Below are positions 3,542-60,534 of a stretch of DNA of 64,000 nucleotides, in pieces (position 1 is the first letter of the stretch; each line of letters starts with the position of its first letter). The DNA comes from an uncultured Oscillospiraceae bacterium (GTDB taxonomy: Bacteria; Bacillota; Clostridia; Oscillospirales; SIG627), in NCBI GenBank assembly GCA_964558655.1, contig CAZLEX010000002.1:65600-129599 (forward strand), written 5' to 3'. The notes under the pieces were generated by a model. The model searched no databases, was not told where the DNA came from, and saw only the letters and a list, made by a program, of their open reading frames with translations. Made by a program: the position numbers and the translations under genes.

Positions 3542-3551
3542 TGTGCCGAAT

Positions 3552-3590: not shown

Positions 3591-3608
3591 TGATATACAG
3601 ATGCTTGA

Positions 3609-5252
<1,644 letters not shown>

Positions 5253-5537
5253 TTATTCTACGATAGCGAGAATGTCGCTCTGTCTTACAACGATGTAATC
5301 GTTTCCGTCGATTTTGACTTCGGTACCCGAATATTTGCTTGTGATTACTCGGTCTCCGACTTTAACCGTCATTTTAACTTCGTTTCCGTCAACCATGCCG
5401 CCGGGACCTACTTCAACAACTTCGGCAACGGAAGGTTTTTCCTGTGCACTTGCAGTAAGAATGATACCGCTCTTTGTGGTCTCTTCAGCTTCAACCTGCT
5501 TGAGAACCACTCTGTCAAGTAATGGCTTTAATTTCAT
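5253..5537 (-). CDS. groES: Co-chaperonin GroES
   Basis: 94 aa, MKLKPLLDRVVLK...GIILT, immediately upstream of groEL. Confidence 0.97.
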   Translation of the reverse strand: MKLKPLLDRVVLKQVEAEETTKSGIILTASAQEKPSVAEVVEVGPGGMVDGNEVKMTVKVGDRVITSKYSGTEVKIDGNDYIVVRQSDILAIVE

Positions 5538-5680: not shown

Positions 5681-7675
<1,995 letters not shown>

Positions 7676-13160: not shown

Positions 13161-13288
13161 TGCATTACCTGTGTTATTTATTAAAATAAGTTTAATGTCC
13201 CGACATTGAAAAGTCAATGGAAAAAAGGATAAAAAGGCAAAAAGTTTTGTCTTTTTATAGGGTTTGCGCGTTTAATTGCAGGTGCAAA

Positions 13289-26387: not shown

Positions 26388-26408
26388 TTTAAAGTTAATC
26401 GATTTTAA

Positions 26409-26445
26409 GCGGTTGAGAAATTTTCTTTCTCGGCCGCTTTTTTTT
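26409..26445 (+). terminator. Rho-independent terminator; left boundary of the T7SS-like island
   Basis: 12-bp stem GCGGTTGAGAAA / TTTCTCGGCCGC (one G-U pair) with a 5-nt loop, followed by T8. Confidence 0.8.
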
Positions 26446-26601
26446 ATAAAAAAATTCCAATTTTTACATTTTAGGGTTATTTTTTTACAAATAGGACGAA
26501 AATTTTCCTTTTATGTGTATTATTTAACTGTATAAAATCGCGAAAAATGTAATATGTGCAAAAGAGCAGTGCTTTTACATACAGCAAGGAAGGTATCGAA
26601 A

Positions 26602-27369
26602 ATGAATTATATCGTTTCTGCCGAAACGGACATCGGTATATTTAAGAATACAAATCAGGACAGCCTGTCCGTTAAAATCATAAATACTCCTGCCGGAAGA
26701 ACGGCTTTTGCGATTCTGTGTGACGGTATGGGCGGGTTGTCAAAAGGTGAAACGGCAAGTGCATCGGTTATAAAAGCGTTCGATGCGTGGGTACTTAACA
26801 CTTTGCCGAGCGTTTGCACTTCGGGCTTTGACGAAAACACGGTCAAAACTCAATGGGAAGAAATATTGCAAAATATGAACTCACGCATAAAATCGTACGG
26901 AGCAAAACAGGGAGTTAAGCTCGGTACGACGGCTGTGATTTTGCTTTTGACCGATAAAAAATATTTCATCATGAATGTCGGTGACTCAAGGGTATATGAG
27001 ATAAGAGAAAATTTAGTGAAGCTCACTGAGGATCAAACATTTGTTGCACGCGAGGTTGCACTCGGAAATATGACTGCCGAGCAGGCCGAAAAAGACGAAA
27101 GACGCAGTGTACTTTTGCAGTGTATCGGAGCGTCGAACGCGGTATACCCAGATTTTTTTGTCGGTGAAACGAAGCAAAACGCGGTGTATATGCTTTGTTC
27201 GGACGGTTTTCGTCATGAAATTACGGAGCAGGAAATTTTTGACGGTTTTCGTCCGGAAGTCCTTGTGAACGATTCGGTTATGAAGCAAAATTCCGTAAAT
27301 TTAATCGAACTTAACAAACAGCGTAACGAGCGGGACAATATATCGGTTATTTTGGTAAGAACCTTTTAA
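26602..27369 (+). CDS. PP2C-family Ser/Thr phosphatase
   Basis: ILCDGMGG, LCSDGF and DNISVILV motifs. I chose the ATG at 26602 (MNYIVSAETDIG), preceded by AAGGAAGG, over the start at 26554. Confidence 0.9.
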   Translation: MNYIVSAETDIGIFKNTNQDSLSVKIINTPAGRTAFAILCDGMGGLSKGETASASVIKAFDAWVLNTLPSVCTSGFDENTVKTQWEEILQNMNSRIKSYGAKQGVKLGTTAVILLLTDKKYFIMNVGDSRVYEIRENLVKLTEDQTFVAREVALGNMTAEQAEKDERRSVLLQCIGASNAVYPDFFVGETKQNAVYMLCSDGFRHEITEQEIFDGFRPEVLVNDSVMKQNSVNLIELNKQRNERDNISVILVRTF

Positions 27370-27386
27370 TTTTAAGGGAGAAAAGT

Positions 27387-29054
27387 ATGCTTGAAATCGG
27401 ATCACTCGTAGACGGTAAGTATAAAATACTCAATAAAGTCGGGCAAGGCGGCATGAGCGTCGTATACCTTGCAATGAACGAAAAAGCGAATAAACAGTGG
27501 GCAGTCAAAGAAGTCAGGAAAGACGGCGTTTTGGATTTTGAATCGGTCAAGCAGGGACTTATTGCCGAAACCGATATTTTGAAGAAGTTGAGTCACCCAA
27601 ATCTTCCGAGTATTGTCGATGTTATAGATACAAACGATTCTTTCATAATCATCATGGATTATATACAGGGTAATTCCTTAAACAAGGCACTTGAAGAATT
27701 CGGTGCACAGCCTCAGGAGTTTGTAATCGAGTGGGCAAAGCAGCTTTGCGATGTTCTCGGATATTTGCACAGCAGGAATCCCGCAATTATTTACCGCGAT
27801 ATGAAACCCGCCAACATTATGTTAAAGCCTGACGGAAATGTAACTCTTATAGACTTCGGAACAGCCCGTGAGTATAAAGAAAAAAATCTTGCCGACACGA
27901 CTTGTCTTGGGACCGTCGGCTATGCGGCTCCCGAACAGTTCGGCGGTATGGGGCAGACAGATGCCCGCACGGATATTTACTGTCTCGGTGCGACGCTCTA
28001 TCATCTTGTAACCGGAATGAATCCGTGCGAGCCGCCTTACGAAATTAAACCCATAAGGCAAATCAATCCCACGCTGTCGGGCGGATTGGAAAGAATCATT
28101 CAAAAATGCACACGCAAAGATCCTCAGGACAGGTATCAGTCATGTGCCGAGCTTATGTACGCACTCGAACATCATGAAGAAATTGATGATGTTCACCGCA
28201 AAAAACAGAAGAAAAAAGTAAAAAAATTCGTCACCGCCTGTGCTATGACAGTTGTATTTGCAGCTGTGTCTTTGTGGGGATATATATCGGCCGAAGACAA
28301 GAAAAGCGAAAATTACGAGGTAATACTCAAGTCGGCACAGACAGAAGAAGATTACTATAAAGCGATTTTGACAGATCCGGCAAGAGAAGAAGCGTATTTG
28401 GAGTTCAACGGTTATTTAATAAACGATTTTGAGCTTTCAAAGGAAGAAGGGCAGTCTCTTTTAAAGCTTTATATAGGACTTGATAACAAAAAGACGAACG
28501 GATTTTCGGAAAATGTGAATGTTTTGGGACGGCTTAAGGAAAAGAATCCCGACGGATATAATAAAGTGTGTTACGAAATAGGGCTGTCTTTTCTGTTCTA
28601 TTACGATGTTAAGATTGATACGGACCGATACTCAAATGCTTCAAAGTGGCTCAGAGAGGTTAAAGATGTATATCCGATAGCCGAAATTTACTGTGACATT
28701 TCAGACTGTCTCGAACTTATCAAACAATACAACGGTTCGAAAATCAAGCAGACGGAAAAAATGTACGAACAGTATGCGAACCTTTGGGAAATGACGGTTA
28801 AATTAAAATCGGGTGCCGACGGATTTGACGGAGTGGATTCCAAATTACAGGTATGGAACGAAATTGTGAAAATGATTGATTCGAATGTCATTGAGCTTCT
28901 TGAGGTTACATCTTCCGAAACGATGATTGAATTTCTCAATTCAATTTCCGAAGATTCGGAAAAAGTCAAAAAATCCGTTCTGGAAGAAGATATAAAAGAG
29001 CTTAGGCTGTCTGTTTCGGAGACGGTGAAAAAAATCGAATCGGCCAAAGCGTAA
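27387..29054 (+). CDS. Transmembrane Hanks-type Ser/Thr kinase without PASTA repeats
   Basis: G-loop GQGGMSVVY, Lys in WAVKEV, catalytic loop YRDMKPANIM, then DFGTA and YAAPE. One TM (FVTACAMTVVFAAVSLWGYI) and an extracytoplasmic, largely helical domain of about 250 aa. Confidence 0.9.
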   Translation: MLEIGSLVDGKYKILNKVGQGGMSVVYLAMNEKANKQWAVKEVRKDGVLDFESVKQGLIAETDILKKLSHPNLPSIVDVIDTNDSFIIIMDYIQGNSLNKALEEFGAQPQEFVIEWAKQLCDVLGYLHSRNPAIIYRDMKPANIMLKPDGNVTLIDFGTAREYKEKNLADTTCLGTVGYAAPEQFGGMGQTDARTDIYCLGATLYHLVTGMNPCEPPYEIKPIRQINPTLSGGLERIIQKCTRKDPQDRYQSCAELMYALEHHEEIDDVHRKKQKKKVKKFVTACAMTVVFAAVSLWGYISAEDKKSENYEVILKSAQTEEDYYKAILTDPAREEAYLEFNGYLINDFELSKEEGQSLLKLYIGLDNKKTNGFSENVNVLGRLKEKNPDGYNKVCYEIGLSFLFYYDVKIDTDRYSNASKWLREVKDVYPIAEIYCDISDCLELIKQYNGSKIKQTEKMYEQYANLWEMTVKLKSGADGFDGVDSKLQVWNEIVKMIDSNVIELLEVTSSETMIEFLNSISEDSEKVKKSVLEEDIKELRLSVSETVKKIESAKA

Positions 29055-29065
29055 GGAGAGAGCAA

Positions 29066-29554
29066 ATGACATACGACATTTACAGATACATATTTATCGG
29101 TGCGGCAATACTTTGCGGTATAATGTTTTTGCTGTCGGTATACTTCTTTATATTCTTTAAAATACCGAGCGTAATAGGAGATCTCACCGGTGCAAATGCA
29201 CGCAAGGCAATAAAAAATATCCGTGAGCAGAACGAGGCAAGCGGAAATAAAGGATACAGAGTCAGCGGTTTTAACGAAGCACGGGGGAGACTAACCGACA
29301 AAATTTCCGGCTCCGGCAGGATTGTACAGCGTAATGCAGGGCAAATGGCCGGGATTAATACGGAGAAAATTTCCACCGCACAACTGACTTCGGACAGTGA
29401 AAACCTAACGACTGTGTTAGATAACTCTTTTCATGACGAAACTACGGTTTTGCACTCTCCGGAAGAGACTTGCGAAAACGCTTCTTTCGAAATCGAATAC
29501 GAAATTACTTTTATTCACACAGATGAAATAATTAGTGCGGAGGAATACATATGA
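29066..29554 (+). CDS. Single-pass membrane protein, unknown function
   Basis: One N-terminal TM helix followed by a polar tail. Tight spacing with flanking genes. I recognise no family motif. Confidence 0.5.
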   Translation: MTYDIYRYIFIGAAILCGIMFLLSVYFFIFFKIPSVIGDLTGANARKAIKNIREQNEASGNKGYRVSGFNEARGRLTDKISGSGRIVQRNAGQMAGINTEKISTAQLTSDSENLTTVLDNSFHDETTVLHSPEETCENASFEIEYEITFIHTDEIISAEEYI

Positions 29555-30063
29555 GTACAAGAGGAACGGACCGCGTATGGCTGTATATCTCAATAGCTTT
29601 CTTTTTTCTGTTTTCGGTAAGCTTTTTGCTTATGCCTTTCGGGGACAGTACCTCTTCCGAAAGCGTTTCGGTATATACACTTATTTCGGGATCTTTGTTT
29701 TGGATATCGCTATTGTCGGGAATTTTCACGCAGGTTTTTCTGTCGCACAGAAGAAAAAAATGGTATGTGAAAAATCATGTCATTGAGGGAAGATTTTCCG
29801 GAAAATTGGGGCTGGTTTCCTTCTTTTCCAACACTGAGGCGACAGTTGCCGATGTAATTTGCATGATAAGTTTTTCGGCTTTGGCAATCTCAATGGTTTT
29901 GACGCACGGTGTCGGATATGTATGTTACATTTTTCTTTCTGTGTTTGTTTTTTCTTTCAGTATGCACTGTATATTAAACGGAAAAAATTACTATCATATT
30001 GTAAATCGTGAAAAAATGCTTCGAAGCCTTGAAAAAAGGCGTGTGAATACGGTAAAAAAGTAA
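29551..30063 (+). CDS. Four-TM membrane protein, unknown function
   Basis: Four hydrophobic segments. ATGA overlap with the upstream gene. Confidence 0.5.
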   Translation: MSTRGTDRVWLYISIAFFFLFSVSFLLMPFGDSTSSESVSVYTLISGSLFWISLLSGIFTQVFLSHRRKKWYVKNHVIEGRFSGKLGLVSFFSNTEATVADVICMISFSALAISMVLTHGVGYVCYIFLSVFVFSFSMHCILNGKNYYHIVNREKMLRSLEKRRVNTVKK

Positions 30064-30080
30064 AGCAAATAGTTTCAATA

Positions 30081-31736
30081 GTGAAATATCTTTCCGATTT
30101 GGCAAATGAAGAAAATATTTCCGTACGGTCTTTATGGCTGCCTCCCATTCCTCCGAAAATTTTTATTGATGAGCTTGAGAAAAAATATCGGAATACATCA
30201 GTCGGGACAAATCTTTGTCCCATTGTCGGAGAATATGACGATCCGTTTAATCAAAAACAGGGTGTATTGACAGTACCGCTTTCATCTGAGGGCAACTGTC
30301 TTATCTACGGTTCGGCAGGTAACGGTAAAACTACTATGCTGACCGCAATAGCGTATTCGCTTATTCGAAATCACAGTGCCGAAGAGCTCAATCTTTACAT
30401 CATGGATTTCGGTTCTGAAACACTTAAAGTTTTTGAAAAAGCCCCGCAAGTCGGAGGTGTGATTGTTTCCTCAGATTCCGAAAAAACAATTAACTTCTTT
30501 AAAATGTTACATAAAGAAGTTGAACACCGTAAAAATCTATTTTCGGAGTTTGGCGGTGATTACGCCGGATATTGTAAAAATAGCGGCAAGACAGTTCCCA
30601 ATATTGTTGTTCTTATCAATAATTATGCCGGTTTTGCCGAACAGTATGAGGATTTAATCGAGTCTTTTGCTTTGCTTACCAGAGACGGTGTGAAATACGG
30701 TATTTATTTTGCCGTCAGTGCAAGTAATACCAACGCAATCCGTTATGTTATGGCACAGAATTTCAAAATGACTGTGTGTATGCAGCTTAACGATGCGACG
30801 GATTATTCCGTTGTAGTGGGTAAGACCGACGGACTTATTCCCTCAAAGTATAAAGGCAGAGGATTAGTGGCGTTGGACAGAGTTTATGAATTTCAAACCG
30901 CTTACTGCAGCGATGCAAGCGATACCTTTGAGTTTTTAAGCGAATATTGTGAAAAGCTTAAAGAAAATGCTACAATTTTTGCTAAGAAAATACCTGTTTT
31001 ACCGGAGATTGTCAATTTTGATTATGTTAAGGGAAACATTGCCGATTTGAAAAATGTCCCGGTCGGTATTTCAAAGAGGTCGCTCGATATTGTATCCTGC
31101 AATATTTTCGGTAAGGTTGCCTATCCTGTACTTTCGCAGGAAATCCGCCAGAGTGTAAGCTTTACGGAAGAATGGATTAAGGTTATTAGCACGCTTGCCA
31201 ATGTCGTCTGTATTGACGCTGAACAGATTCTCGATATTGAAGGTCAAAACAGCATTGATGTTGTCAGAGACAATTTTGAAGAATATGTTCACGCGCTTTT
31301 TGACGATACGGTAGAACGCAACAATACTTATAAAGACGCCGGAATGGATCCCAAATCTCTTGAAGCCTTCGAACACAAGGTTGTTGTGTTTGCGGGTTAC
31401 AAACGGTTTTTGAGTTTGCTCTCGGCTGACGGGCAGGAAAAGATAGGACTTGTTCTTCTGAAAGCCGAAACAATTTATAAACTGCATTTTATTGTTATCG
31501 ATTCCGTATCCGATTTCGGATCCTACAATTATGAAGCATGGTGTAAAAAACAGATTACAGGTGCCGAAGGAATTTGGGTTGGTGACGGAGTGGCGGATCA
31601 GTACACACTCAAGGTGAATAAGCTTACCAATGAATTGTACGAGGATATCGGTGACGAGTACGGTTATGTCTTTAACAGAAGCCGTCCGACGCTTGTAAAG
31701 TTACTTTCGTCTGTAGATAAAGAGGGGGAAGAATAA
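30081..31736 (+). CDS. FtsK/SpoIIIE-family ATPase, EssC/EccCb-like (two P-loop domains only)
   Basis: LWLPPIP linker motif, Walker A GSAGNGKTT and Walker B-like LYIMDFG, then a second degenerate domain with no Walker A. No TM segment and no FHA domain. GTG start. Confidence 0.8.
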   Translation: MKYLSDLANEENISVRSLWLPPIPPKIFIDELEKKYRNTSVGTNLCPIVGEYDDPFNQKQGVLTVPLSSEGNCLIYGSAGNGKTTMLTAIAYSLIRNHSAEELNLYIMDFGSETLKVFEKAPQVGGVIVSSDSEKTINFFKMLHKEVEHRKNLFSEFGGDYAGYCKNSGKTVPNIVVLINNYAGFAEQYEDLIESFALLTRDGVKYGIYFAVSASNTNAIRYVMAQNFKMTVCMQLNDATDYSVVVGKTDGLIPSKYKGRGLVALDRVYEFQTAYCSDASDTFEFLSEYCEKLKENATIFAKKIPVLPEIVNFDYVKGNIADLKNVPVGISKRSLDIVSCNIFGKVAYPVLSQEIRQSVSFTEEWIKVISTLANVVCIDAEQILDIEGQNSIDVVRDNFEEYVHALFDDTVERNNTYKDAGMDPKSLEAFEHKVVVFAGYKRFLSLLSADGQEKIGLVLLKAETIYKLHFIVIDSVSDFGSYNYEAWCKKQITGAEGIWVGDGVADQYTLKVNKLTNELYEDIGDEYGYVFNRSRPTLVKLLSSVDKEGEE

Positions 31737-31987
31737 TGAAAAAAGTGTTGGTAGAGGTTTTTGTACCCGTTATCGATACCCGTTACGATGTATTTATTCC
31801 CGGCAATTCTCAAATGTCGGAAGTTTTGGAACTTTTGAAAAAAGCTGTTGCCGATTTATCCGGAGGGCGTTTCGTTGCCACCGGAGATGTGGCTGTATGC
31901 TACCGTGAAAACGGTTCTATTATCAATGTTAACATGACGGTTTATGAACTCGGAATTCATAACGGCTCAAAACTCATGTTGATATAA
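31736..31987 (+). CDS. YukD/EsaB-like ubiquitin-fold protein
   Basis: 83 aa. Its beta-grasp-like sequence pattern (RYDVFIPGNSQMSEVLELL...ELGIHNGSKLMLI) and its position directly after the EssC-like gene match EsaB/YukD. Confidence 0.7.
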   Translation: MKKVLVEVFVPVIDTRYDVFIPGNSQMSEVLELLKKAVADLSGGRFVATGDVAVCYRENGSIINVNMTVYELGIHNGSKLMLI

Positions 31988-32010
31988 AAAATTTAAGGAG
32001 GTCATGAAAA

Positions 32011-32313
32011 ATGGCAAGAAACATTCAGGTAACCCCAGAACAATTGGAATCCACCGCAACACAAATTGATAGTTTGGCAGCAGACTATAAGTCTCAGTAT
32101 GATCTGCTCTATAAGGAAACCGATGCGATGGCTTCTACATGGAACGGAAAGGACAACACGGCGTTTACCAATCAGATCGCAGGCTTTAAGGACGATTTCG
32201 AGAAGATGCACACTTTGATGCTTAATTATGCCGATTTCTTAAGAAAAAGTGCAAAATCTTACCGTGATACGCAGGATACCGTTGTATCCGAAGCTCGTAA
32301 ATTACAGAATTAA
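32011..32313 (+). CDS. WXG100-family protein (EsxA-like)
   Basis: 100 aa helical hairpin with a central W-N-G (ASTWNGKD). Strong GGAGG RBS. Confidence 0.85.
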   Translation: MARNIQVTPEQLESTATQIDSLAADYKSQYDLLYKETDAMASTWNGKDNTAFTNQIAGFKDDFEKMHTLMLNYADFLRKSAKSYRDTQDTVVSEARKLQN

Positions 32314-32330
32314 CAGGGAGGAAACATAAA

Positions 32331-32630
32331 ATGGCAGACAACATTAAAATTTCAACACAAGTACTTACAGACACAGCTCAGAAAGTTCGTAATTGCAATA
32401 CTGCAATGGACGACAAACTTAAAGAAATCAATGACAAAATGGACGCTTTGGGAAGCACATGGAAGAGTGACGCAGCTACAGATATTCGTGACGCTATGAA
32501 CGCATTAAAATCGAAGTTTGAACAATACAAAAATGTCATTGAATCTTATGCAACATTCCTTGTAAATACCGCTCAGAGCTATGAGTCAACCGAAGGAGCT
32601 ATTCAGACCAACGCAAACGCATTTAAATAA
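32331..32630 (+). CDS. WXG100-family protein, variant W-K-S turn
   Basis: 99 aa with the same architecture. The turn reads GSTWKSDA. GGGAGG RBS. Confidence 0.75.
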   Translation: MADNIKISTQVLTDTAQKVRNCNTAMDDKLKEINDKMDALGSTWKSDAATDIRDAMNALKSKFEQYKNVIESYATFLVNTAQSYESTEGAIQTNANAFK

Positions 32631-32736
32631 TGCCGAATATTTGCAGGTGGGTGTTTACCCCACCCATCTGCCTAAATTTGAAAACGGTCAATATAAATTT
32701 ATTGTTTATATATAATTTTTACAGGAGAAGAAAAAA

Positions 32737-35151
32737 ATGAAATTGTTTAAGCGGATACTTTGTTTGAGTCTTTCTCTGATATTTGTTGCCCAGATGATGA
32801 TCGGTTGTTCGTCAAAGAAAACCGATGAGGAGATTTATCTTACCAAGGGAGAATTTTTTGCATATTTTGTTTACGAAAATAATATGACATCTCAAAAATA
32901 CAGTACACAGGAAATTCAAAATTGCGAAGACGGTTCTGTTGAAGCTGATATCATCGTTGAGTGGGGATATTTGCCTGAAAAATTGGCAAAGAAAAATTTG
33001 AATAAGCCGGTTGAAAAAGAAATTGTCGTCATGGTTTGTGCCAATGCTACATTTGGCTTAAAGAAAGGCAACTCCGCCGATATAAAAGATGCCGATTTAC
33101 TTAATGCTCCTCAATTAATTGCAGATGCGTATGCAAGCGGTTTTTTTGAATTAGAAAACGGATATTTTGACGGTGCACAGCATATGTCTTTCGCCGATTG
33201 CGAAGAAATAATGAATAAGGCGAAGAATTATACAGCCAATTTCCATTATGAAGCGAATACAGAAACGACTTCTACAGCAGAAGGCGTAAAAGAGCAAGAT
33301 ATTTCAAATTATGAAGACGGCGATATTTTTGTCGAATTTTTCGGGGACGAGGTAGTATTGGAAAACAGTATGGTTGTATCCTCAGAAGAAAAGTTATTCG
33401 AAACGAGTAATGATTCGTCAAAATTTGCCTTTTTGAGTGCGGGCACTTCTCCGCAAATAACTACACTTGAAAGTAAAGTTCAAGATAGCGAAACAACACT
33501 TTTGGCAAAAACACCGAGTCGTCTTAGTGTTAAAGATGTTACGGGCTTTTCCGCAACTTTTACAAAATCTGCATTTGAAGAATCACTTGGTAACCCACAA
33601 ATCGGGGATACAGTTGTAATAAAAAAATTTAAAGAAATAAGCAACGATTATTATGTAGGCGATGACGGTGAAATTATCGGTGTCCTGATTAGTATGGAAG
33701 TAAATGGTTCCAACTATATTTGTAAATTTAAATATCCTGATTTTGAAGAAGCAGTATCAAGCAAGAATATTGAAACAGCCAATGCTTCAAAAATAGATAC
33801 TGAAAAATATGAAATTTTTGAAACGAAAGTAGGCGGATGGGAATTAAGTTTTAATGTAACCTCAAGCTCTGTTGGCGTAACTGCGTCAAAAGGTTATACA
33901 ACTTATGAAACCGGAAGAAAGCAGGATTGGCAGAATTCCAAGCAAACGGTAAATGCGAAAGCTGAGTTCGAAATTAGCAATTTTAATGTTGATATCAATA
34001 ATTTAAAGAGCTTTGTAGATGAAAATAACGGTGAAGGGTTTATAAAAGTCACATGTGACACGACGATGGCTTTTTCACTAAGTCAAAGTTTGAGATATAC
34101 TCCCGATAGCAACAGAAACGGAAAATTTCCGTCAAACTGGTCCAATTCCAGATGGACAGATACCGATTCCAAAGGTGCAAAAGAAATTAAAATTGCCAAA
34201 ATCCCCATTGATGTGTATGGGGTTGCAAGTGTTAATGTATACATTTATTTAGAAATTTCCGTTGACGGAAAAATCGAGTTTTCGACATCTATTGATGGTG
34301 GCGGTGTACAAATTACCGCTAATAACGGAAATGTGTCCGTTCAAAAACTCGGCGAAAAAAAGTCTGAAGCAACTGCAGAAGTAAATTTACACGGCCGTTT
34401 TGGCATTGATGTAAGCGTAACACTTTTTAAATTTATAAATGTAATTGAATATGATATAGGTTTAGATCTCGATATTCATGCTGCGGTTAGTCTTTATTAT
34501 GAAAATAAATTGGAAGCAGACGGTGTATATGCCGATCAAGAAGGCTTAGAGGAATACGCGGCAGATGACAGTAAATTTAATTATTGTATAGGAGTTCAAG
34601 TTACAGTTAGCATTTCAGGTGAGCTGAAGGATTCGGGAGTGAAAAAACTTCTCAAGCTATTTTCAGCCGGAGATTCTTTGAATTTCTCGCATGAATTATG
34701 GACGGGAGGAATTCATATTGAAGACGGAGCTTTTGTTGATAAATGTACTCGCGGCGATGAGGTTGAAGAATCTGACAGCGATGAAGTGGTACTTAGCTCA
34801 TATAAAGTGATTCTCGAAGAAGGCGAGAGCGATTTTATTTCGCTGAAAGCAGTTCCTTCAGAAACTGTGAATTTATTGGATTCTAAGAATTCAATTACAG
34901 TTGAGAGTAACAATCCGGGTATTTGTACTGTAACCTACGACAAAACAAATAATTTGATAATTGTGGAAGCAGTAGGTGAAGGCAGTACCGAAATTGTAAT
35001 TAAAGCAAAAAAGGGTATAGTGTGGTGGAAGGATAACTGTGAGCAAAAAATATCGGTAACAGTTAATCCGTCTTCATACGGTGGTGAGTTTGAGGGTATT
35101 AGTTATATCATCACCAATCCTTATAACACACTAAATTTTAAATACATGTAA
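32737..35151 (+). CDS. Large lipoprotein with C-terminal Big_2-like Ig domain
   Basis: Lipobox ...MMIGCSS. 804 aa, with a C-terminal ISLKAVPSETV...GICTVTYD...VEAVGEGSTEIVIKA pattern typical of bacterial Ig-like group 2 domains. Confidence 0.7.
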   Translation: MKLFKRILCLSLSLIFVAQMMIGCSSKKTDEEIYLTKGEFFAYFVYENNMTSQKYSTQEIQNCEDGSVEADIIVEWGYLPEKLAKKNLNKPVEKEIVVMVCANATFGLKKGNSADIKDADLLNAPQLIADAYASGFFELENGYFDGAQHMSFADCEEIMNKAKNYTANFHYEANTETTSTAEGVKEQDISNYEDGDIFVEFFGDEVVLENSMVVSSEEKLFETSNDSSKFAFLSAGTSPQITTLESKVQDSETTLLAKTPSRLSVKDVTGFSATFTKSAFEESLGNPQIGDTVVIKKFKEISNDYYVGDDGEIIGVLISMEVNGSNYICKFKYPDFEEAVSSKNIETANASKIDTEKYEIFETKVGGWELSFNVTSSSVGVTASKGYTTYETGRKQDWQNSKQTVNAKAEFEISNFNVDINNLKSFVDENNGEGFIKVTCDTTMAFSLSQSLRYTPDSNRNGKFPSNWSNSRWTDTDSKGAKEIKIAKIPIDVYGVASVNVYIYLEISVDGKIEFSTSIDGGGVQITANNGNVSVQKLGEKKSEATAEVNLHGRFGIDVSVTLFKFINVIEYDIGLDLDIHAAVSLYYENKLEADGVYADQEGLEEYAADDSKFNYCIGVQVTVSISGELKDSGVKKLLKLFSAGDSLNFSHELWTGGIHIEDGAFVDKCTRGDEVEESDSDEVVLSSYKVILEEGESDFISLKAVPSETVNLLDSKNSITVESNNPGICTVTYDKTNNLIIVEAVGEGSTEIVIKAKKGIVWWKDNCEQKISVTVNPSSYGGEFEGISYIITNPYNTLNFKYM

Positions 35152-35174
35152 ATACTTTTGAATAGAGGGAAATT

Positions 35175-35687
35175 ATGGCGATTAATGTTAACACTGCAAA
35201 CAGTCAAGCCGAACAATTGAATAACAGCATTTCTCAGTTGCGAAATGCCCGTAAGCAGATGTTAGCATATAAATCTTCTGTTTCGGGCAGTTGGCAGGGG
35301 AAAGAAGTCAATTATATTTTGAAAGCAATCGACCAAGTCGTCGGAGATATTGACAGTGCTGTGGGTGAACTCGATTCATTGAGAAGCGATATCAAGAATG
35401 CGGCAGCTCAGATCAAGCGTGAAGAAGACGCTGCCGCAGCGGCTGCCCGTGCGAGAGCGGAAAAACAGCAAAAAATTACTTATGCACAGAATGTTTACGA
35501 CAGTGCAAGCGAGGAATTGGAGTCATTGACGGATAAAAGAAATAAGCTTGAAGAAAAGTTAAAGAGTGCTTCTTTTACGGAAAAAATTCGCATTTACGAG
35601 GAAATTAAATCCCTTGACAAAAAGCTTGAAGAGGCAAAGGACAAATGCGAAAGTGCGTACGATGCATTAAGGACGGTTAAAAGATGA
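35175..35687 (+). CDS. WXG-like coiled-coil protein (170 aa)
   Basis: The N-terminal 90 aa resemble a WXG100 hairpin with W-Q-G (SGSWQGKE). An Ala-rich linker and a further coiled coil follow. Confidence 0.55.
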   Translation: MAINVNTANSQAEQLNNSISQLRNARKQMLAYKSSVSGSWQGKEVNYILKAIDQVVGDIDSAVGELDSLRSDIKNAAAQIKREEDAAAAAARARAEKQQKITYAQNVYDSASEELESLTDKRNKLEEKLKSASFTEKIRIYEEIKSLDKKLEEAKDKCESAYDALRTVKR

Positions 35688-36790
35688 CCATGAATAAATT
35701 TAAAATCGAATATCTCGCCGATCAAAAGTTTCTTGTTGTTCATGGGCAAAAGGGACAGCAGATAAGCGAACGCGAGTATTATGCGATAAGCAAAGGTCAG
35801 ATACCGGGCTTGCTTCGCGCACAGTTAGTCAGAAAAGGAAATACATTCAGGCTGAACTATAATATATCCGGATATATTTCGCTAAGAGAGTTTCTCGTCA
35901 ATCCTCTCAGTAAGTCCACTTTTGTAAAACTTCTCGGCAACATTCTGGATAATCTCAAATTTTTGCAGAACGCTTACTACAACTATCAATTTATATTGAT
36001 GGATATGAATGCCGCGATGGTTAATCCCGCAACACAGCAGGTGAGCTTTGTTTATGTGCCGATAACCTTTTACGAAAGCGGTACAAATCTGAAAGATTTT
36101 TTGCTCGGTATCATTCAATGCTGTTCTTTTATTCCCGGAGAAAATACCGATTATGTCCGCGATTACATAATAATTCTCAATAGCGGAATTAATTTTTCGC
36201 TGTTTGATTTGGAGGAATATGTCAAAAGGCTGAAAATTGACGAACATACGGTTAAAAATGTCAAAAAATGCACTCATTGCGGCAGTGTGATTTTGCCCAA
36301 TGTCAATTTCTGTTCTTCCTGCGGAATGAAAATCTCCGGCCTGAATACAGATGACCGACAGGGAATATACGATCCTGCCGAAAGTATGCTTCAACCTTTG
36401 AAAAAAGGCGAAAGATTAAATTATTCGGCGGTGAACGGAAAAGAGCAGTATTGTGAAAGTGTGTCGGTAAATGTTATTAACGGAGATGGACAGGTAAGGG
36501 CGTACATATTCAGAATCAAAACAGGGGAACAGATACCGATTACATCGAATTTGTTCAGAGTCGGCAAAGATCCGAACGCTTGCGAATACTGCGTCAGAAA
36601 TAATCCCGCAGTGAGCAGATGTCACATTTTAATAAAACGGGTAAACGGTAAACCGTTTCTTACGGATTTAAATTCGACAAATAAAACTTACATTGATGGG
36701 AAAATGATTTTGCCGAATACGGATATACAGCTGTATGACGGCATGAACATAAGACTTGCAAACGAAGATTTTATATTTAAATTTTATTAA
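35684..36790 (+). CDS. FHA-domain protein with central zinc ribbon
   Basis: C-terminal FHA (FRVGK...VSRCHILI...LTDLNSTNKTYIDG). Double CxxC (CTHCGSV...CSSCGMK). An uncharacterised N-terminal domain of about 190 aa. Confidence 0.85.
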   Translation: MTMNKFKIEYLADQKFLVVHGQKGQQISEREYYAISKGQIPGLLRAQLVRKGNTFRLNYNISGYISLREFLVNPLSKSTFVKLLGNILDNLKFLQNAYYNYQFILMDMNAAMVNPATQQVSFVYVPITFYESGTNLKDFLLGIIQCCSFIPGENTDYVRDYIIILNSGINFSLFDLEEYVKRLKIDEHTVKNVKKCTHCGSVILPNVNFCSSCGMKISGLNTDDRQGIYDPAESMLQPLKKGERLNYSAVNGKEQYCESVSVNVINGDGQVRAYIFRIKTGEQIPITSNLFRVGKDPNACEYCVRNNPAVSRCHILIKRVNGKPFLTDLNSTNKTYIDGKMILPNTDIQLYDGMNIRLANEDFIFKFY

Positions 36791-36805
36791 GCGGGAGTTG
36801 AGAAA

Positions 36806-37099
36806 ATGTATCCGGAGTTTATAGCGATTTATGTAATGTTGGGCATTGTAATTTTAATGTTGGGAGCCGTTCTTTTCTTTTTGATTAAACTTATGAAGAG
36901 GAGCGGTGCAAATTCAAACAATTACTATATGCCGAACTATCAGGCAAACGATAATTATTACGGCGGACAGTATAGGGAACAGTATCCTCAGCAACAGTAT
37001 TCACAGCAGGGCGGCGGAGTGGTTTTTTGCAGACAATGTGCTTCACAGTTTGATTCTTCGCAGGCGTACTGTCCTCATTGCGGAGCGAGAAGACAGTAA
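36806..37099 (+). CDS. Small TM protein with Q/Y/N-rich linker and C-terminal zinc ribbon
   Basis: One TM helix, a low-complexity NYY..QYREQYPQQQYSQQGGG stretch, and CRQC...CPHCG. Confidence 0.55.
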   Translation: MYPEFIAIYVMLGIVILMLGAVLFFLIKLMKRSGANSNNYYMPNYQANDNYYGGQYREQYPQQQYSQQGGGVVFCRQCASQFDSSQAYCPHCGARRQ

Positions 37100-37120
37100 T
37101 TTTTACAGGAGGTGATAACG

Positions 37121-38428
37121 GTGAGCAGAACAAAAATCAATGTTTCGGCGGTAATTGACGCATCGGGGCAAATCAATTCCGCAAAAACTTATGTCTCTTC
37201 TGCTAAAAGCACATTCACCGGAGCAAAAAATGGCATTGACGGCAAAATAAAAAGCAGGTATAACATAAATAACAGGCTTGTTTCCGTTCAAAAGCAACTG
37301 TCGGATATTGACGGTAAGATAAGTAAAATTCGTGCCACCGTTCAATCGGGAGCAAACCTTTACCGTGAAACTGATGACAGAGTGAAGTCTTGGAGGAAAG
37401 ACTTGAATGTCGGCATGAATGTCAACGGTGCAGTCATAAGTAAATGGGCTTTATACTTTAAAAACAACGATGCCGACAATTCAAATGATATTTTCGGTTC
37501 CGACTCATTTAAAGTGTATGCTGATAAAAATAAAACGGAGCACTCCGAAGAATATTTCAAATCAAAAGAATACAGTAAGACCTCATCGTTTAAATCCGAC
37601 GGAGAATTTGACGATATAAGCGAGGATGCTGAAAAATGGAAAGAAAACAAAAAGAAAAAATTAGAAGATAAAGGACTCTATAGAGAAGAAAAAGAGACAA
37701 AGTACTATAACAAGGACGGAAATGAAATCAGCAAGGAAAATGCACCTAATTTTTATGAGCGTCAAGCTACACTTGGCGAGTGGAGCGTTGAAAATAAGAT
37801 TTCTGTTTCTTATTATGAAGGTACATTTGATACCATGCTTGGCGGTGTTGCAGCTGTTACAGTCGGAGAGGCGGAAATGCATGCGGAATTTTCAGCCGGT
37901 TGCTATATAATCGGAAGTGATGGGAAACAAGTTTTCAGTCCCGGCGTTAATGCGGAAGTTGGAGGTAGTGCAACTGCTTTTAATGTCACTTATGAGAATC
38001 AACTTTTTGGCGATGAAATGTTAGGTATGAATGTTGACGGTTCCGTTACAGCCCTCTCTGTTTCTACCGAAGTCGAACTAAATGTTAACTTTATGGGTAA
38101 AGATGAAAAAGGGAATGTTGTTTTTGACCCACAAGTTAATGTCGGTGTAGATGCTGAAGTCGTATTGGTTGAAGTAGAAGGAAGTGTTGGTGTTAATATT
38201 TTAGGCGGAGAGGCCAGTGTTTCCGGAAGTGTTAAGGTGGGCTTTGGAGCTAATGCCGATGTCGGATATAAAGACGGCGTATTTAAATGTGAAATCGGTG
38301 CATCTTTAGGTATTGGATTTGATGTGGGCTTTGAAGTGGATGTTGGCGGTATGGTGAATACCGCAGCCGATGTCGCTTCATCGGCTTGGGACGGCCTGAA
38401 AAACGGTTGGAACAGTCTTTGGGGATAA
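37121..38428 (+). CDS. Candidate T7SS substrate/toxin: helical N-terminus plus Gly/Val-rich C-terminal domain
   Basis: The N-terminal ~100 aa form a helical hairpin-like region ending ...LYRETDDRV. The middle is charged. The C-terminal ~190 aa show an alternating V/G/A/D pattern. GTG at 37121 lies 8 nt after AGGAGG, whereas the GTG at 37112 overlaps that RBS. Confidence 0.5.
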   Translation: MSRTKINVSAVIDASGQINSAKTYVSSAKSTFTGAKNGIDGKIKSRYNINNRLVSVQKQLSDIDGKISKIRATVQSGANLYRETDDRVKSWRKDLNVGMNVNGAVISKWALYFKNNDADNSNDIFGSDSFKVYADKNKTEHSEEYFKSKEYSKTSSFKSDGEFDDISEDAEKWKENKKKKLEDKGLYREEKETKYYNKDGNEISKENAPNFYERQATLGEWSVENKISVSYYEGTFDTMLGGVAAVTVGEAEMHAEFSAGCYIIGSDGKQVFSPGVNAEVGGSATAFNVTYENQLFGDEMLGMNVDGSVTALSVSTEVELNVNFMGKDEKGNVVFDPQVNVGVDAEVVLVEVEGSVGVNILGGEASVSGSVKVGFGANADVGYKDGVFKCEIGASLGIGFDVGFEVDVGGMVNTAADVASSAWDGLKNGWNSLWG

Positions 38429-38431
38429 AAG

Positions 38432-38857
38432 ATGAGCGAATATAAGTTTGTGCTATTTCTGATAATAGGAATAATTTTTTTGTTGATTCATTTGTTTGAT
38501 GTCAAAACCGATAATTTTCAATTTGAGCAATATGACGGCTTTGGAACTATAACAAGAATCAACATGAATGAAAGAGGCCGTACTTGGTATTATGTTGACA
38601 TTAATATCAACGGGCAAGTTTATAGTGCACAAACCGACGCTTATAAGATTGTTCCGAAAGGCGTTGATAAAGGTGATACGGTGTCGGTTAAATATCACTT
38701 TACAAAAAATGGTTTTGTAAGATGTTATATTACACAAGACGGTTTTGAACGAGTTATTCAAGAAAATCAAAATAAGACACCTATAATGTTATATATCGCA
38801 ATTATATGCTTTACTGTTTTTGCATTTATGTTCGTTAAAATTTTGTTGAATTTTTGA
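38432..38857 (+). CDS. Two-TM protein (TM, beta-rich domain, TM), candidate immunity protein
   Basis: It starts 3 nt after the candidate toxin gene. The topology resembles DUF3592-type proteins. Confidence 0.5.
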   Translation: MSEYKFVLFLIIGIIFLLIHLFDVKTDNFQFEQYDGFGTITRINMNERGRTWYYVDININGQVYSAQTDAYKIVPKGVDKGDTVSVKYHFTKNGFVRCYITQDGFERVIQENQNKTPIMLYIAIICFTVFAFMFVKILLNF

Positions 38858-38916
38858 AATAAAGATTGATAAATATTCATGACTATAGTATAATTAAAAA
38901 AACGGAGGTAATAGCT

Positions 38917-39198
38917 ATGTTTCAAGGTTTGTTGCCGATAGGTTCGGTAGTTCTTTTAAAAGATAGCACTAAAAGAGTTATGATTATAGGTGTTTGTCAA
39001 AAAGGTGCTAATGATCCGTCTAAGATTTGGGATTATGCAGGTGTAGTTTTTCCCGAAGGCTATCTTTCTGCGGATAAGGTCTTTCTTTTTGATACCAACC
39101 AGATAGGTCAAATATATCAGATTGGATATCTTGATGCGGAGTCTCTTGCATTTAAGGTTAAGGTTGATGAAGCAATTAAGAAGATCAGAGAAGAGTAA
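38917..39198 (+). CDS. DUF4176-family protein
   Basis: LPIGSVVLLKD...MIIG...WDYAGVVFPEG pattern. ATG at 38917 follows GGAGGT. I know this family as a T7SSb accessory. Confidence 0.75.
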   Translation: MFQGLLPIGSVVLLKDSTKRVMIIGVCQKGANDPSKIWDYAGVVFPEGYLSADKVFLFDTNQIGQIYQIGYLDAESLAFKVKVDEAIKKIREE

Positions 39199-39400
39199 TT
39201 TTGGTGAGCCGGGTCTTCTACTTGACTCTTTTGCATTTGCACAGAGATTATATCAATATAAATTGTTTGTAATGACATATTAAAATTACAGATGATGCTA
39301 CCGATGCAACGGTGGTTTGAGTGTAGCGCGAAAGATATCGCATTTCATTTGCAAAAAGCGGATTTTCGGTTTGAAATGACTTGAAAAAACGGTAGCGATA

Positions 39401-39444
39401 TGTTACAATATTGACGGTACGGCAAGAAGCTGTACCGTCAATAT
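39401..39444 (+). promoter_or_regulatory. Extended -10 element plus 13-bp perfect inverted repeat in the GH42 leader
   Basis: TGtTACAAT (39401-39409). ATATTGACGGTAC (39408-39420) / GTACCGTCAATAT (39432-39444) with an 11-nt loop, ending 20 nt before the GH42 start. Confidence 0.5.
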
Positions 39445-39464
39445 TTATATTTAGGAGAAAAAAG

Positions 39465-60246: not shown

Positions 60247-60534
60247 ATTATCCCTTCTTTCTTTTTTGAAGGACCTCCACATACCTTTCCTTCTGCAAGT
60301 GATTATATCAAAGTGGGTGCATGACATACAATGACACGGATATGACGGGAAATGTTGATTTTTTAACAAATTTATGGTAGAATAACCTCAAACCGACGAC
60401 GGTGGAACGCCGTCGAAATGCCAACGCATTTAAAAATTTTCAAATTTTGTTTGAGAACATTGTATCATTAAACCGGTCGCACTGCGGTGAGACGACGGCT
60501 ACGCCGACTTCAAAGGCTATCGCCTTTGGGTTTA

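Follow-up and report, generated by a model that had tools for sequence, protein, structure and literature searches.

Introduction

[quoted passage not shown] Control by threonine phosphorylation, with an analogy to the T6SS, has already been proposed for this subtype, and Neobacillus is the genus named for it (PMC11217815). In Staphylococcus aureus, deletion of FHA1 or of the DUF destabilises EssC, and recruitment of EssB needs FHA2 (PMC9436818). In the T7SSb of Listeria monocytogenes and L. seeligeri, second essC copies are 5'-truncated, lack a start codon and are called pseudogenes. They begin at residue 771, part-way into the ATPase region, and are followed by the cognate effector set (PMC10327511).

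In this study, we analysed a 64-kb stretch of DNA (the window) carrying an island that is likely to be a chromosomal T7SSe-type locus of an uncultured Oscillospirales-like clostridial bacterium, with the 5' ~950-980 codons of tseC gone. The original prediction had read the island as a novel T7SS-like apparatus whose kinase, phosphatase and FHA protein stand in for lost parts. Its assignment to the T7SS, a kinase-phosphatase pair distinct from PrkC/PrpC and the conserved linkage of these genes all hold, whereas its claims of novelty, replacement and core loss do not.

Results

Gene content and boundaries

Open reading frame (ORF) and profile searches confirmed the 15 predicted genes, co-directional on the + strand from 26602 to 39198 and separated by short gaps. 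They encode a PP2C phosphatase, a transmembrane (TM) Hanks kinase, small membrane proteins, a 551-aa FtsK/EssC-type ATPase, a YukD protein and two WXG100 proteins, together with an 804-aa lipoprotein, a DUF6382-Zn-ribbon-FHA protein, a TM/Zn-ribbon protein, a candidate effector/immunity pair and a DUF4176 protein. The features of the locus are as follows.

26407..26449, +: left boundary of the operon, formed by the intrinsic terminator of a xylose-isomerase-like TIM barrel gene lying upstream (14-bp stem, 6 GC pairs, T8 tail)
26602..27369, +: TseF-type PP2C/PPM Ser/Thr phosphatase, 255 aa from ATG 26602 (PP2C_2, synteny, motifs)
27387..29054, +: TseD-type transmembrane Hanks Ser/Thr kinase with intact catalytic motifs (Pkinase, motifs, TM)
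29066..29554, +: g03, TseH/TseK-like single-pass membrane protein of 162 aa whose long tail is of low complexity (TM 13-31)
29551..30063, +: g04, 170-aa polytopic membrane protein with 3-4 TM (TM scan, homologue alignment)
30044..30060, +: deletion junction, placed by comparison with relatives
30053..31736, +: 5'-truncated tseC, EssC/EccC-family ATPase remnant with D2-D3 only (homology to full-length TseC)
31736..31987, +: TseB, YukD/EsaB-type ubiquitin-like protein, 83 aa (Pfam YukD 1e-5, synteny)
32011..32313, +: TseA1, WXG100 protein, 100 aa (WXG100 5e-16; TIGR03930 above cut-off)
32331..32630, +: TseA2, second, non-identical WXG100 protein, 99 aa (WXG100 5e-15)
32737..35151, +: TseI-like 804-aa lipoprotein, candidate wall-spanning component (sequence, orthologues)
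35175..35687, +: 170-aa WXG100-like coiled-coil protein (weak WXG100 match, 0.005)
35684..36790, +: TseJ, DUF6382 with Cys4 zinc ribbon and C-terminal FHA (Pfam, motifs, published TseJ match)
36806..37099, +: 97-aa single-pass membrane protein, TseK/TseH-like (TM 8-26; Zn-ribbon matches)
37112..38428, +: candidate secreted effector, 438 aa (architecture, modular homologues)
38432..38857, +: 141-aa two-TM protein, candidate immunity protein (TMs 6-24 and 117-135)
38917..39198, +: DUF4176 protein, probable start ATG 38917 (Pfam DUF4176 2e-26)
39407..39455, +: probable operon terminator 3' of the last gene (17-bp perfect hairpin, T-rich tail)

The predicted left terminator is real, with a hairpin at 26407-26439 followed by a T run, and on the right the 17-bp hairpin and its T-rich tail were located at 39407-39445. 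As for gene starts, that of the first gene probably lies at 26602 as proposed, and a Shine-Dalgarno sequence (aaggaagg) is found upstream of it; that of the DUF4176 gene had to be corrected, probably to ATG 38917, which is preceded by acggagg. Outside the island, the scan covered 24 larger flanking ORFs, all of which proved to be housekeeping or carbohydrate genes.

Assignment to T7SSe

Pfam and NCBIfam matches and the component set bear out a T7SS-type locus. Moreover, the locus belongs to the recently described T7SSe subtype, judging by its component set, its TseJ and TseC sequence matches and its synteny with 80 related loci, Neobacillus included. The FHA protein of the window matches the C-terminal TseJ sequence given in the supplement to PMC11217815 (46% identity, 2e-24), and the TseC N-terminus published there matches the ATPases of the relatives retrieved. 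Kinase, phosphatase and FHA protein are normal core parts of this subtype. Hence, the triad, taken before to be undescribed in a firmicute T7SS, is the published T7SSe set, for which the same hypothesis and the same T6SS analogy had been put forward (PMC11217815). No EssB/YukC, EsaA or EssA family matched among the cluster's own proteins in Pfam and NCBIfam profile searches, as had been noted. This absence is normal for T7SSe and not peculiar to the island: the "missing canonical membrane core" is a property of the subtype, and the real gap is ~63% of tseC.

Phosphatase, kinase and FHA protein

The phosphatase matches Pfam PP2C_2 (6e-9), has all of the metal-binding motifs DGMGG, SDG and DNIS, and shares 45-55% identity with syntenic orthologues in relatives. 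The kinase (Pfam Pkinase, 3e-50) retains its G-loop (19-27), K41, E61, YRD (136-138), DFG (156) and APE (181) motifs, and a single TM helix (residues 282-300) is followed by an extracytoplasmic helical domain; its orthologues, adjoining PP2C in relatives, are 48-62% identical. The original prediction had allowed that the two might be PrkC and PrpC, placed here by chance. By sequence, they are not this housekeeping pair, because no PASTA domain was found in the kinase and both proteins score below cut-off, at 207 versus 450 bits for the NCBIfam PASTA-kinase model, which covers the kinase domain only, and at 165 versus 230 bits for the Stp1 model. The linkage to the ATPase, also questioned at the outset, is conserved: among 42 fully flanked related loci, the kinase is present in at least 31, PP2C in at least 29 and DUF6382-FHA in at least 26. 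TseJ combines DUF6382 (2.5e-8), a zinc ribbon (2e-6; cysteines CTHC 196 and CSSC 210) and an FHA domain (1.6e-13) with its GK (294-295), SRCH (311) and NKT (333) motifs.

Other core, membrane and effector genes

The YukD match of TseB falls just below the gathering score, and TseB lies directly 3' of the ATPase gene in 42/42 fully flanked related loci. TseA2 exceeds the cut-off of NF035934 (ESAT6_2; 111 bits against 100). The TseI-like protein carries a lipobox (MIGC, Cys24) and, as in relatives, a Big_2-like Ig domain near the C-terminus (the Big_2 match on the L001 orthologue is weak), and has no C-terminal TM. An 803-aa orthologue in L013 is 54% identical, and lipoprotein counterparts of 696-803 aa occur in L008, L009, L012 and L028. 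Homologues of the 170-aa coiled-coil protein, likewise between the TseI and TseJ genes, are found in 25/80 loci. In the 97-aa protein, a Q/Y/N-rich linker leads to a C-terminal zinc ribbon, and its homologues lie directly 3' of TseJ in L008-L010, L014, L023 and L025. Those of g03 lie directly 3' of the kinase gene in L011, L012, L013, L018, L041 and L045-L047, and a subset of relatives also retains g04, again 3' of the 162-aa gene. No Pfam family matched the 804-aa protein, the 438-aa protein or the small membrane proteins, g03 among them.

The candidate effector consists of an N-terminal helical hairpin, a disordered linker and a Gly/Ala/Val-rich all-beta domain. The hairpin resembles LXG/WXG in architecture only. 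Modular homologues exist; no Pfam, NCBIfam or PDB sequence match was obtained, and an AF2 model (pLDDT 69.5) gave no convincing fold match. The 141-aa protein is a candidate immunity protein by position only, and no homologue of it occurs among the 80 related loci. DUF4176 is a family of Ltc-type toxin-specific chaperones (PMC12478183).

A truncated motor gene and its junction

The longest ORF of the tseC remnant encodes 551 aa from its sole start codon, GTG 30081. The product matches Pfam FtsK_SpoIIIE (2e-17), and Pfam and TM scans found no FHA domain and no TM helix in it. The earlier statement that FHA, TM and first ATPase regions are missing is correct, because the protein aligns with positions 742-1294 of the 1296-position NCBIfam EssC model (277 bits against a cut-off of 778) and in the PDB it matches the D2-D3 parts of EccC/EssC. 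Alignments of full-length TseC proteins to the window are confined to their residues ~947-1513; used as queries, these proteins revealed no N-terminal TseC sequence on either strand of the 64 kb. About 63% of tseC is missing, encoding two FHA domains, two TM helices, a DUF/D0 module and ATPase D1.

TseC protein homology (KKVKQIVSI) begins ~9 codons upstream of GTG 30081, with an in-frame stop 8 codons above the start of that homology, and this GTG is the operon's only start without a GGAG-type Shine-Dalgarno sequence. At the junction, the 3' end of g04 (…GAAAAAAGGCGTGTGAAT) is joined to the tseC D1-D2 linker (…CGGTAAAAAAGTAAAGCA). The g04 protein aligns to within 1-2 residues of the ends of its L011, L012, L013 and L018 homologues; its final 3-4 codons and stop codon come from tseC-derived sequence, and the DNA forming that stop is identical to L009 across GGTAAAAAAGTAAAGCA. 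Because homology precedes the start codon, the Shine-Dalgarno sequence is absent and the g04 stop is made of tseC-derived DNA, the truncation reads as a lesion, not a design feature. It is a lineage-specific deletion.

A GGT(T)AAAAA(T/A)G microhomology is common to both junction parents. This shared stretch of only ~7-10 nt, far under assembler k-mer lengths, makes it improbable that tseC is intact in the genome and that the contig was mis-joined or captured a minority deletion variant. The source does seem to be a metagenome-style contig from an organism not in culture, and several related metagenomic contigs have unusual ATPase ORFs (L003-L007 are split at differing points, and ORF P0017 is chimeric); yet the join is clean and lies inside a 132-kb contig, and an independent 5' truncation was assembled identically from two samples. 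The latter belongs to a second lineage (L001/L002), whose gene set is otherwise intact, and could mean that such states are tolerated or even selected.

An in-phase A_AAA_AAG heptamer occupies 30054-30060, just 5' of the g04 stop. A -1 slip here could yield a membrane-anchored g04::D2-D3 fusion of ~727 aa.

Survey of related loci

The survey drew on 80 related loci; 75 related GTDB loci had enough upstream DNA, and 42 loci were fully flanked. The closest match among GTDB representatives shows 70% identity. In 75/75 of the loci with sufficient flank, the ATPase orthologue is a single uninterrupted ORF (1514-1601 aa) whose N-terminal extension is ~980 codons long; counted from the point at which the window ORF begins, the frame stays open for 962-1056 codons upstream. 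None is naturally split at the D1/D2 boundary. A collection of 5.8 billion proteins contains the short form only once.

These data largely refute the idea of a short ATPase by design, in which a streamlined apparatus would use the stand-alone FHA protein, kinase and small membrane proteins in place of the EssC FHA, TM and D1 regions. The other genes are indeed all intact, co-directional and tightly spaced, the remnant retains every highly conserved residue, and the slip could supply a membrane anchor. However, in all 75 assessable relatives the same accessory genes accompany a full-length, FHA-bearing TseC; the short form is unique, TseC homology precedes its start codon, and a Shine-Dalgarno sequence is lacking. 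The sequence 3' of the heptamer forms no stimulatory RNA structure (z = 0.09), and the heptamer's phase is a 1-in-3 accident since its sequence was inherited from the tseC linker. We therefore regard a designed short form as very improbable.

The remnant is open over 551 codons and deviates at 0/112 columns that are at least 90% conserved (81 sequences), and 14/14 neighbouring genes are full-length relative to their orthologues. An undecayed remnant with full-length neighbours fits a very recent deletion and continued selection on the fragment equally well.

Discussion

Our results favour, as the likely explanation, a T7SSe locus inactivated, probably recently, through a deletion in tseC that removed at least 2.9 kb. 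If an intact system works like EssC/EccC, its TseC would form a membrane-anchored hexamer exporting the WXG100 pair TseA1/TseA2 as well as effectors tagged by a helical hairpin, in this case the 438-aa protein, which would have the DUF4176 protein as its chaperone. YukD-like TseB, the lipoprotein TseI on the wall side and the small membrane proteins would assist in export. TseD and TseF would control a phospho-Thr state, with the FHA domains of TseC, together with TseJ, as its readers. The deletion would have fused the tseC D1-D2 linker to the 3' end of g04, the gene of the 170-aa membrane protein, at the A-rich microhomology. Since the D2-D3 remnant left over has neither a ribosome-binding site nor a native start codon, translocon assembly by this locus is most likely no longer possible, and the system is most likely disabled, and recently so. 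The remaining genes and the remnant itself still look intact.

Comparison with known systems

The Listeria truncated essC shares with the window a 5'-truncated EssC-type gene opening within the ATPase region, and ESX-1 (T7SSa) shares a stand-alone D2-D3 polypeptide of ~550-590 aa from the D1/D2 linker. Both bear on an unlikely but not negligible alternative, namely that this is an accessory or orphan locus whose substrates are exported in trans by an intact T7SSe, or another T7SS, elsewhere; the remnant would then be a relic like the second essC of Listeria, or a soluble EccCb1-like substrate-recognition subunit. The truncated Listeria copies accompany the effector set of their variant (PMC10327511), EccC of ESX-1 is naturally split at the same boundary, and the remnant matches the EccCb model TIGR03925 (150 bits) and the EccCb1 structure (PDB 9jv8). 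The undecayed state of the remnant also fits, as do the extra T7SSe gene copies of L037 and L027 (WXG pair, second TseJ-like protein, second kinase or PP2C). However, a full-length essC of another variant lies directly upstream in Listeria, where only effector modules are duplicated, and eccCa1 (TM and D1) adjoins upstream in ESX-1, both genes having proper translation signals. The window has no such partner anywhere in its 64 kb (26 kb upstream, 25 kb downstream), its remnant lacks a Shine-Dalgarno sequence and native start, it is accompanied by the whole core set and not by effectors alone, and no related GTDB locus is split here. Inactivation by deletion thus remains the preferred reading.

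The H1-T6SS of Pseudomonas aeruginosa (PpkA/PppA/Fha1), like the Agrobacterium T6SS, also has a TM Hanks kinase, a PP2C and an FHA protein in a secretion locus, and T7SSe plausibly follows the same logic of phospho-Thr-dependent assembly or firing. The machines are nevertheless unrelated, their homology being limited to generic domains, and the main candidate phospho-reader of T7SSe, the FHA domains on TseC, is the very part deleted in the window.

With T7SSb (S. aureus Ess, B. subtilis Yuk), the locus shares an EssC-family ATPase, WXG100 proteins, YukD/EsaB, a DUF4176 chaperone and a toxin-immunity module whose N-terminal targeting domain is helical. Unlike T7SSb, the window has two WXG100 paralogues, no EssA, EssB/YukC or EsaA, an active-type kinase with intact motifs rather than a pseudokinase, and an effector without an LXG Pfam match.

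The closest agreement is with T7SSe, likewise of Bacillota: two non-identical WXG100 proteins, a YukD-like TseB, a TseC-clade EssC-family ATPase, the TM kinase TseD, the PPM phosphatase TseF, the DUF6382-FHA protein TseJ, TseH/TseK-like single-pass membrane proteins and a large Sec-exported Ig-domain protein (TseI-like), with no EssA, EssB or EsaA. The window differs in that tseC lacks its first ~950-980 codons (FHA x2, TM x2, DUF, D1) and in that its TseI-like protein is a lipoprotein without the C-terminal TM of the published example, close relatives being alike. In addition, PP2C, kinase, g03 and g04 lie upstream of the ATPase gene, whereas the published order places them downstream of TseJ, and the window adds to the core list the conserved 170-aa polytopic protein and the 170-aa WXG-like coiled coil.

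The gene island and its surroundings

Profile searches bore out the gene list and the co-directional arrangement of the original prediction, which had described a T7SSb-like island with a kinase/PP2C/FHA triad. Fifteen ORFs, all on the + strand, lie within 26554-39198, spaced by -4 to about 100 nt. Their products include PP2C_2, Pkinase, FtsK_SpoIIIE, YukD, two WXG100, DUF6382 plus zinc ribbon plus FHA, and DUF4176 proteins. The island and its boundaries comprise the following features.

Features of the island
26407-26449: terminator, left of the island
26554-39198, +: the fifteen ORFs
within the island, +: two small membrane proteins, one of 162 aa (single-pass) and one of 170 aa (polytopic; gene g04, 29551-30063, following the 162-aa gene)
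from GTG 30081, +: 551-aa FtsK_SpoIIIE protein, without TM helix and without FHA domain
32011-32630, +: adjacent, non-identical WXG100 pair (TseA1/TseA2)
within the island, +: 804-aa lipoprotein, without Pfam family
within the island, +: 170-aa WXG-like coiled coil
within the island, +: 97-aa TM/zinc-ribbon protein
37112-38428, +: 438-aa protein, accompanied by a 141-aa two-TM protein, neither in a family
39407-39445: 17-bp hairpin, right of the island

The G+C content is 37-40% in the island (window 28000-40000), compared with 42-47% in both flanks. No T7SS-related gene was found among the 24 flanking ORFs scanned, all of them housekeeping or carbohydrate genes, including acetate kinase, GroEL, LigA, GH2, GH42, EF-G and ABC exporters. 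The EF-G is 87% identical to that of an uncultured 'Clostridia' and 82% identical to those of Ruminococcaceae/Oscillospiraceae MAGs. Just 5' of the island, two tandem paralogous GDSL/SGNH lipase-acylhydrolase genes (23298-24269 and 24355-25329) share 79-94% nucleotide identity. Further away on the - strand, a 723-aa ORF (58198-60369) and a 269-aa ORF (12408-13217), the latter adjoining an SLH-domain protein (13289-14242), matched no Pfam family at E<=1e-5.

Assignment to T7SSe

By text search, the family name DUF6382 pointed to the study by Garrett, Higginson and Palmer (2024; PMC11217815), which defines T7SS subtypes c to j. There, T7SSe comprises two WXG100 proteins (TseA1 and TseA2), a YukD-like protein with a ubiquitin fold (TseB), a TM kinase with a conserved active site (TseD), a PPM phosphatase (TseF) and two small proteins that cross the membrane once and have short, unstructured parts in the cytoplasm (TseH and TseK). 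[quoted passage not shown] EssA, EssB and EsaA are absent from T7SSe, and the authors explicitly raise its phospho-regulation, citing T6SS as the precedent.

Judged by its gene set and by sequence matches to the printed TseJ and TseC ends, the island of the window is a T7SSe member. Its FHA protein is 46% identical (2e-24) to the TseJ C-terminus printed in the supplement of PMC11217815, matches Pfam DUF6382 (2.5e-8) and FHA (1.6e-13), has no TM helix, and carries the FHA motifs GK/SRCH/NKT, the same variant as the published TseJ. The closest relatives of the 551-aa ATPase (41-70% identity) are ATPases of 1514-1601 aa, among them that of Neobacillus, a genus named for T7SSe in the same study. 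The N-termini of ATPases in the retrieved loci match the printed TseC N-terminus, the best of them at 39-69% identity. Together, these identities point to a place for the 551-aa protein in the TseC clade. The TseB candidate scores 26.3 bits against a Pfam YukD gathering score of 27 (E 1e-5), and its slot is occupied in 42/42 fully flanked relatives. The single-pass proteins of 162 and 97 aa are syntenic in relatives and are candidates for TseH/TseK by architecture and position. The 804-aa protein carries a signal peptide of the lipoprotein type and, C-terminally, a Big_2-like domain, but no C-terminal TM helix; its close relatives are built likewise. The T7SS assignment stands, whereas the reading of the locus as a new class of phospho-regulated secretion machine has been overtaken, this class having been published in 2024 as T7SSe.

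The housekeeping PrkC/Stk1-PrpC/Stp1 pair consists of a PASTA-domain kinase and a Stp1-equivalog phosphatase in a conserved cell-division/translation neighbourhood. Such an identity was ruled out for the kinase and PP2C of the island by sub-cut-off scores, a missing PASTA domain and T7SS neighbours. The TseD-type kinase, with one TM helix at 282-300 and complete catalytic motifs, reaches 207 bits against the PASTA-kinase model (cut-off 450) and aligns to model positions 1-284 only, the PASTA domain being absent. The PP2C scores 165 bits against the Stp1 model (cut-off 230). Both genes have T7SS genes as neighbours, in the window and in relatives, and syntenic orthologues in related loci.

Conservation of the linkage in related loci

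Scanning one genome per GTDB species with an alignment of ATPase homologues yielded 80 loci. The best matches were in Acutalibacteraceae and other Clostridia MAGs (52-70% identity), followed by Neobacillus, Mesobacillus and Cohnella (41-44%). The 42 loci having >=9 kb on both sides were searched with the window proteins by tblastn, which gives lower bounds.

Fully flanked loci with each component (tblastn, lower bounds)
YukD: 42/42
WXG100 pair: 39-40/42
Kinase: 31/42
PP2C: 29/42
DUF6382-FHA protein: 26/42

The predicted linkage of kinase, PP2C, FHA protein and ATPase is therefore real and conserved among related loci, and gut and rumen Clostridia MAGs confirm independently that it is widespread and syntenic. 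The commonest order is TseC-YukD-WXG-WXG-TseI-coiled coil-TseJ-PP2C-kinase-162 aa-170 aa. In a second locus type, TseJ is followed by the 97-aa protein, an effector sharing the N-terminus of the 438-aa protein, and DUF4176. Both sets are combined in the window, where PP2C-kinase-162-170 sit 5' of the ATPase.

The closest relatives (loci L008, L009 and L043) encode a second TseJ-like FHA protein directly 5' of full-length tseC (6653-6973, 6654-6974 and 5001-5321, respectively), in addition to the TseJ 3' of tseC. In several of these loci, a search of the surrounding 10 kb revealed neither kinase nor PP2C.

A probable 5' deletion in tseC

The original prediction had taken the missing parts of the ATPase as an architectural novelty, a view at odds with the relatives and with the DNA around the start codon. 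As its sequence indicates, the short ATPase is a lineage-specific deletion remnant, a lesion in a T7SSe member and not a different family. A single ORF of 1514-1601 aa encodes the ATPase in 75/75 GTDB loci whose upstream DNA sufficed for the comparison, with 962-1056 codons open 5' of the point matching the window ORF start, and the window's ATPase forms a singleton cluster. TseC of L008, L013 and the Neobacillus locus L062 matches the window only at residues ~947-1513 (30024-31733). Nothing in the window corresponds to residues 1-946 of a full-length relative, and no tseC N-terminal sequence occurs elsewhere on either strand of the 64 kb. In line with this, the NCBIfam EssC model aligns only at 742-1294 of 1296 (277 bits, cut-off 778), and the PDB matches of the remnant are the D2-D3 parts of EccC/EssC, plus EccCb1.

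Homology extends 5' of the only start codon. The window frame reads …*KKACEYG-KKVKQIVSI-V(GTG 30081)KYLSDLANEE, the same stretch being …KEKKVKQIVSIVKYISDLANEE in L008 and …NTGKKVKQIVSIVKYLSDLANEE in L009, and GTG 30081 is the sole start in the operon without a GGAG-type Shine-Dalgarno sequence. The DNA of the window equals that of L009 over GGTAAAAAAGTAAAGCA; immediately 5' of this stretch, it corresponds to the native 3' terminus of the 170-aa gene (GAAAAAAGGCGTGTGAAT vs GAAAAGAGGAAGGTTAAAAAT in L011). Both parental sequences share the microhomology GGT(T)AAAAA(T/A)G at the junction, a plausible site of illegitimate recombination. That the join is an assembly artefact seems very improbable to us. 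The deletion spans at least 2.9 kb and removed both FHA domains (which carry GR/SxxH/NG motifs in relatives, as in the L008 sequence), both TM helices, the DUF module and ATPase D1.

Two other explanations were discarded. A naturally short or split ATPase had been suggested by the first protein search, with matches of <=962 aa only; it was given up in view of overlapping half-ORFs that sum to about 1500-1540 aa in their neighbourhoods and by single 1514-1601-aa ORFs in all assessed GTDB loci. An inversion or phase-variable rearrangement was rejected, as the junction has no significant repeats beside it, whether inverted or direct, and the 64 kb contain no N-terminal tseC; an inversion with a breakpoint beyond the window, which is conceivable, would likewise disrupt tseC.

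Other irregular loci were encountered. In a second lineage, represented by L001 and L002 from two independent metagenome samples, tseC (2819-5275 and 2929-5385, ATPase 59% identical to the window's) has a different 5' truncation, starting inside the D1 Walker A motif (P-loop; MTGSGKSE) beside an amino-acid permease/HD gene, and the remaining T7SSe gene set is intact 3' of it. None of the 75 species representatives has a 5'-truncated tseC. Decay of tseC is thus not unique, yet rare. In the distant loci L003 (8185-12799), L006 (7854-12451) and L007 (2655-7273), with 39% identity, ORF calling breaks the EssC-like ATPase into two ORFs, split at differing points (541+932, 700+816 and 951+603 aa, the L007 pair overlapping), which could be frameshift errors or real pseudogenes. 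Little surrounds them: a YukD-like gene plus two very short ORFs, by SpoIID, Abi_2 and trypsin-PDZ genes. P0017, a 684-aa ORF from a Logan contig, passes from TseC D1-D2 (79% identity to the window remnant) straight into the interior of a TseD-type kinase domain, and represents another rearrangement, or a mis-assembly, in a T7SSe locus.

The 438-aa protein

The 438-aa protein had no Pfam match at E<=10, including to the LXG domain, and no NCBIfam or PDB sequence match. It belongs to a sizeable uncharacterised family without a Pfam model. The C-terminal 72% recurs in many proteins on other, longer N-termini (584-593 aa in total length), which is a polymorphic-toxin pattern. In an AlphaFold2 model (pLDDT 69.5), residues 8-97 form a helical hairpin and residues 96-123 a disordered linker, after which come some ten long beta strands in which Gly, Ala and Val abound. 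Foldseek returned porin-like matches only for this model, with meaningless TM-scores of about 0.1. There is a small chance that this candidate effector is the first of a new family of toxins exported by T7SS, with a beta-rich and possibly pore-forming domain. Position alone makes the two-TM protein of 141 aa a candidate for the immunity function.

Discussion

In EssC, the TM segments hold the hexamer in the membrane. Deletion of FHA1 or the DUF destabilises the protein, and FHA2 recruits EssB (PMC9436818). Given the harm of FHA/DUF loss and the missing TM anchor, a D2-D3 fragment presumably cannot, by analogy with EssC, build a translocon. Moreover, the domain proposed as receiver of the kinase signal is the portion deleted, and the FHA of TseJ is the sole one left. 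A disabled T7SSe is therefore the most likely state of the locus. Its inactivation seems to be recent, since the remnant keeps 551 open codons and deviates at 0/112 columns conserved at >=90% (81 sequences), and the genes beside it are all full-length. An undecayed remnant is equally what a still-selected fragment would be expected to show, and for this reason other readings were kept in view.

We consider it rather unlikely that a tseC elsewhere in the genome serves the locus in trans, a situation for which the ESX-1 ATPase, naturally split at the same domain boundary, and the truncated, start-less second essC copies with effector sets of Listeria (PMC10327511) offer precedents. A dnaX-type A_AAA_AAG heptamer (30054-30060) lies in phase with the 170-aa gene, right before its TAA stop, and a -1 slip there would enter the remnant and yield a fusion of about 727 aa. 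Little weight is given to a functional short form made as such a membrane-anchored fusion: the phase fits, but no stimulatory structure lies 3' of the heptamer and the motif derives from the tseC linker, and programmed -1 frameshifting was rejected on these grounds. More generally, there is a slim chance that the remnant is still used and that 5'-truncated tseC loci (the window, L001/L002) are a selected state and not debris. The remnant may then act as a soluble substrate-recognition subunit, by analogy with EccCb1, with TseC encoded elsewhere, or it may join a membrane-anchored g04::D2-D3 fusion through the -1 slip.

The window locus is thus apparently a defective T7SSe member, and intact relatives, L013 for example, or cultivable Neobacillus species would be better subjects for T7SSe than this broken copy. 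The locus also provides a natural 5'-deletion allele of tseC whose junction is mapped, a warning for annotation, as pipelines would report a '551-aa FtsK/SpoIIIE protein' here and count the locus among T7SS. The 438-aa candidate effector adds an uncharacterised family with a beta-rich C-terminal domain and no Pfam model.

In T7SSb (Ess/Yuk), the EssB/YukC pseudokinase, EssA and EsaA/YueB are present, whereas none of them had a Pfam or NCBIfam match in the 15 cluster proteins and 24 flanking ORFs scanned. The published TseI has a C-terminal TM helix, unlike the 804-aa TseI-like protein of the window, the two being compared by description. LXG toxins carry the LXG domain (PF04740) at the N-terminus and a variable toxin domain behind it, with DUF4176/Lap partners. 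A kinship of the 438-aa protein with them may be suggested by its predicted N-terminal helical hairpin and disordered middle, its modular C-terminus and the adjacent DUF4176 gene. DUF4176 proteins are toxin-specific chaperones that bind the disordered middle region of LXG toxins (PMC12478183), a role that fits the arrangement found here.
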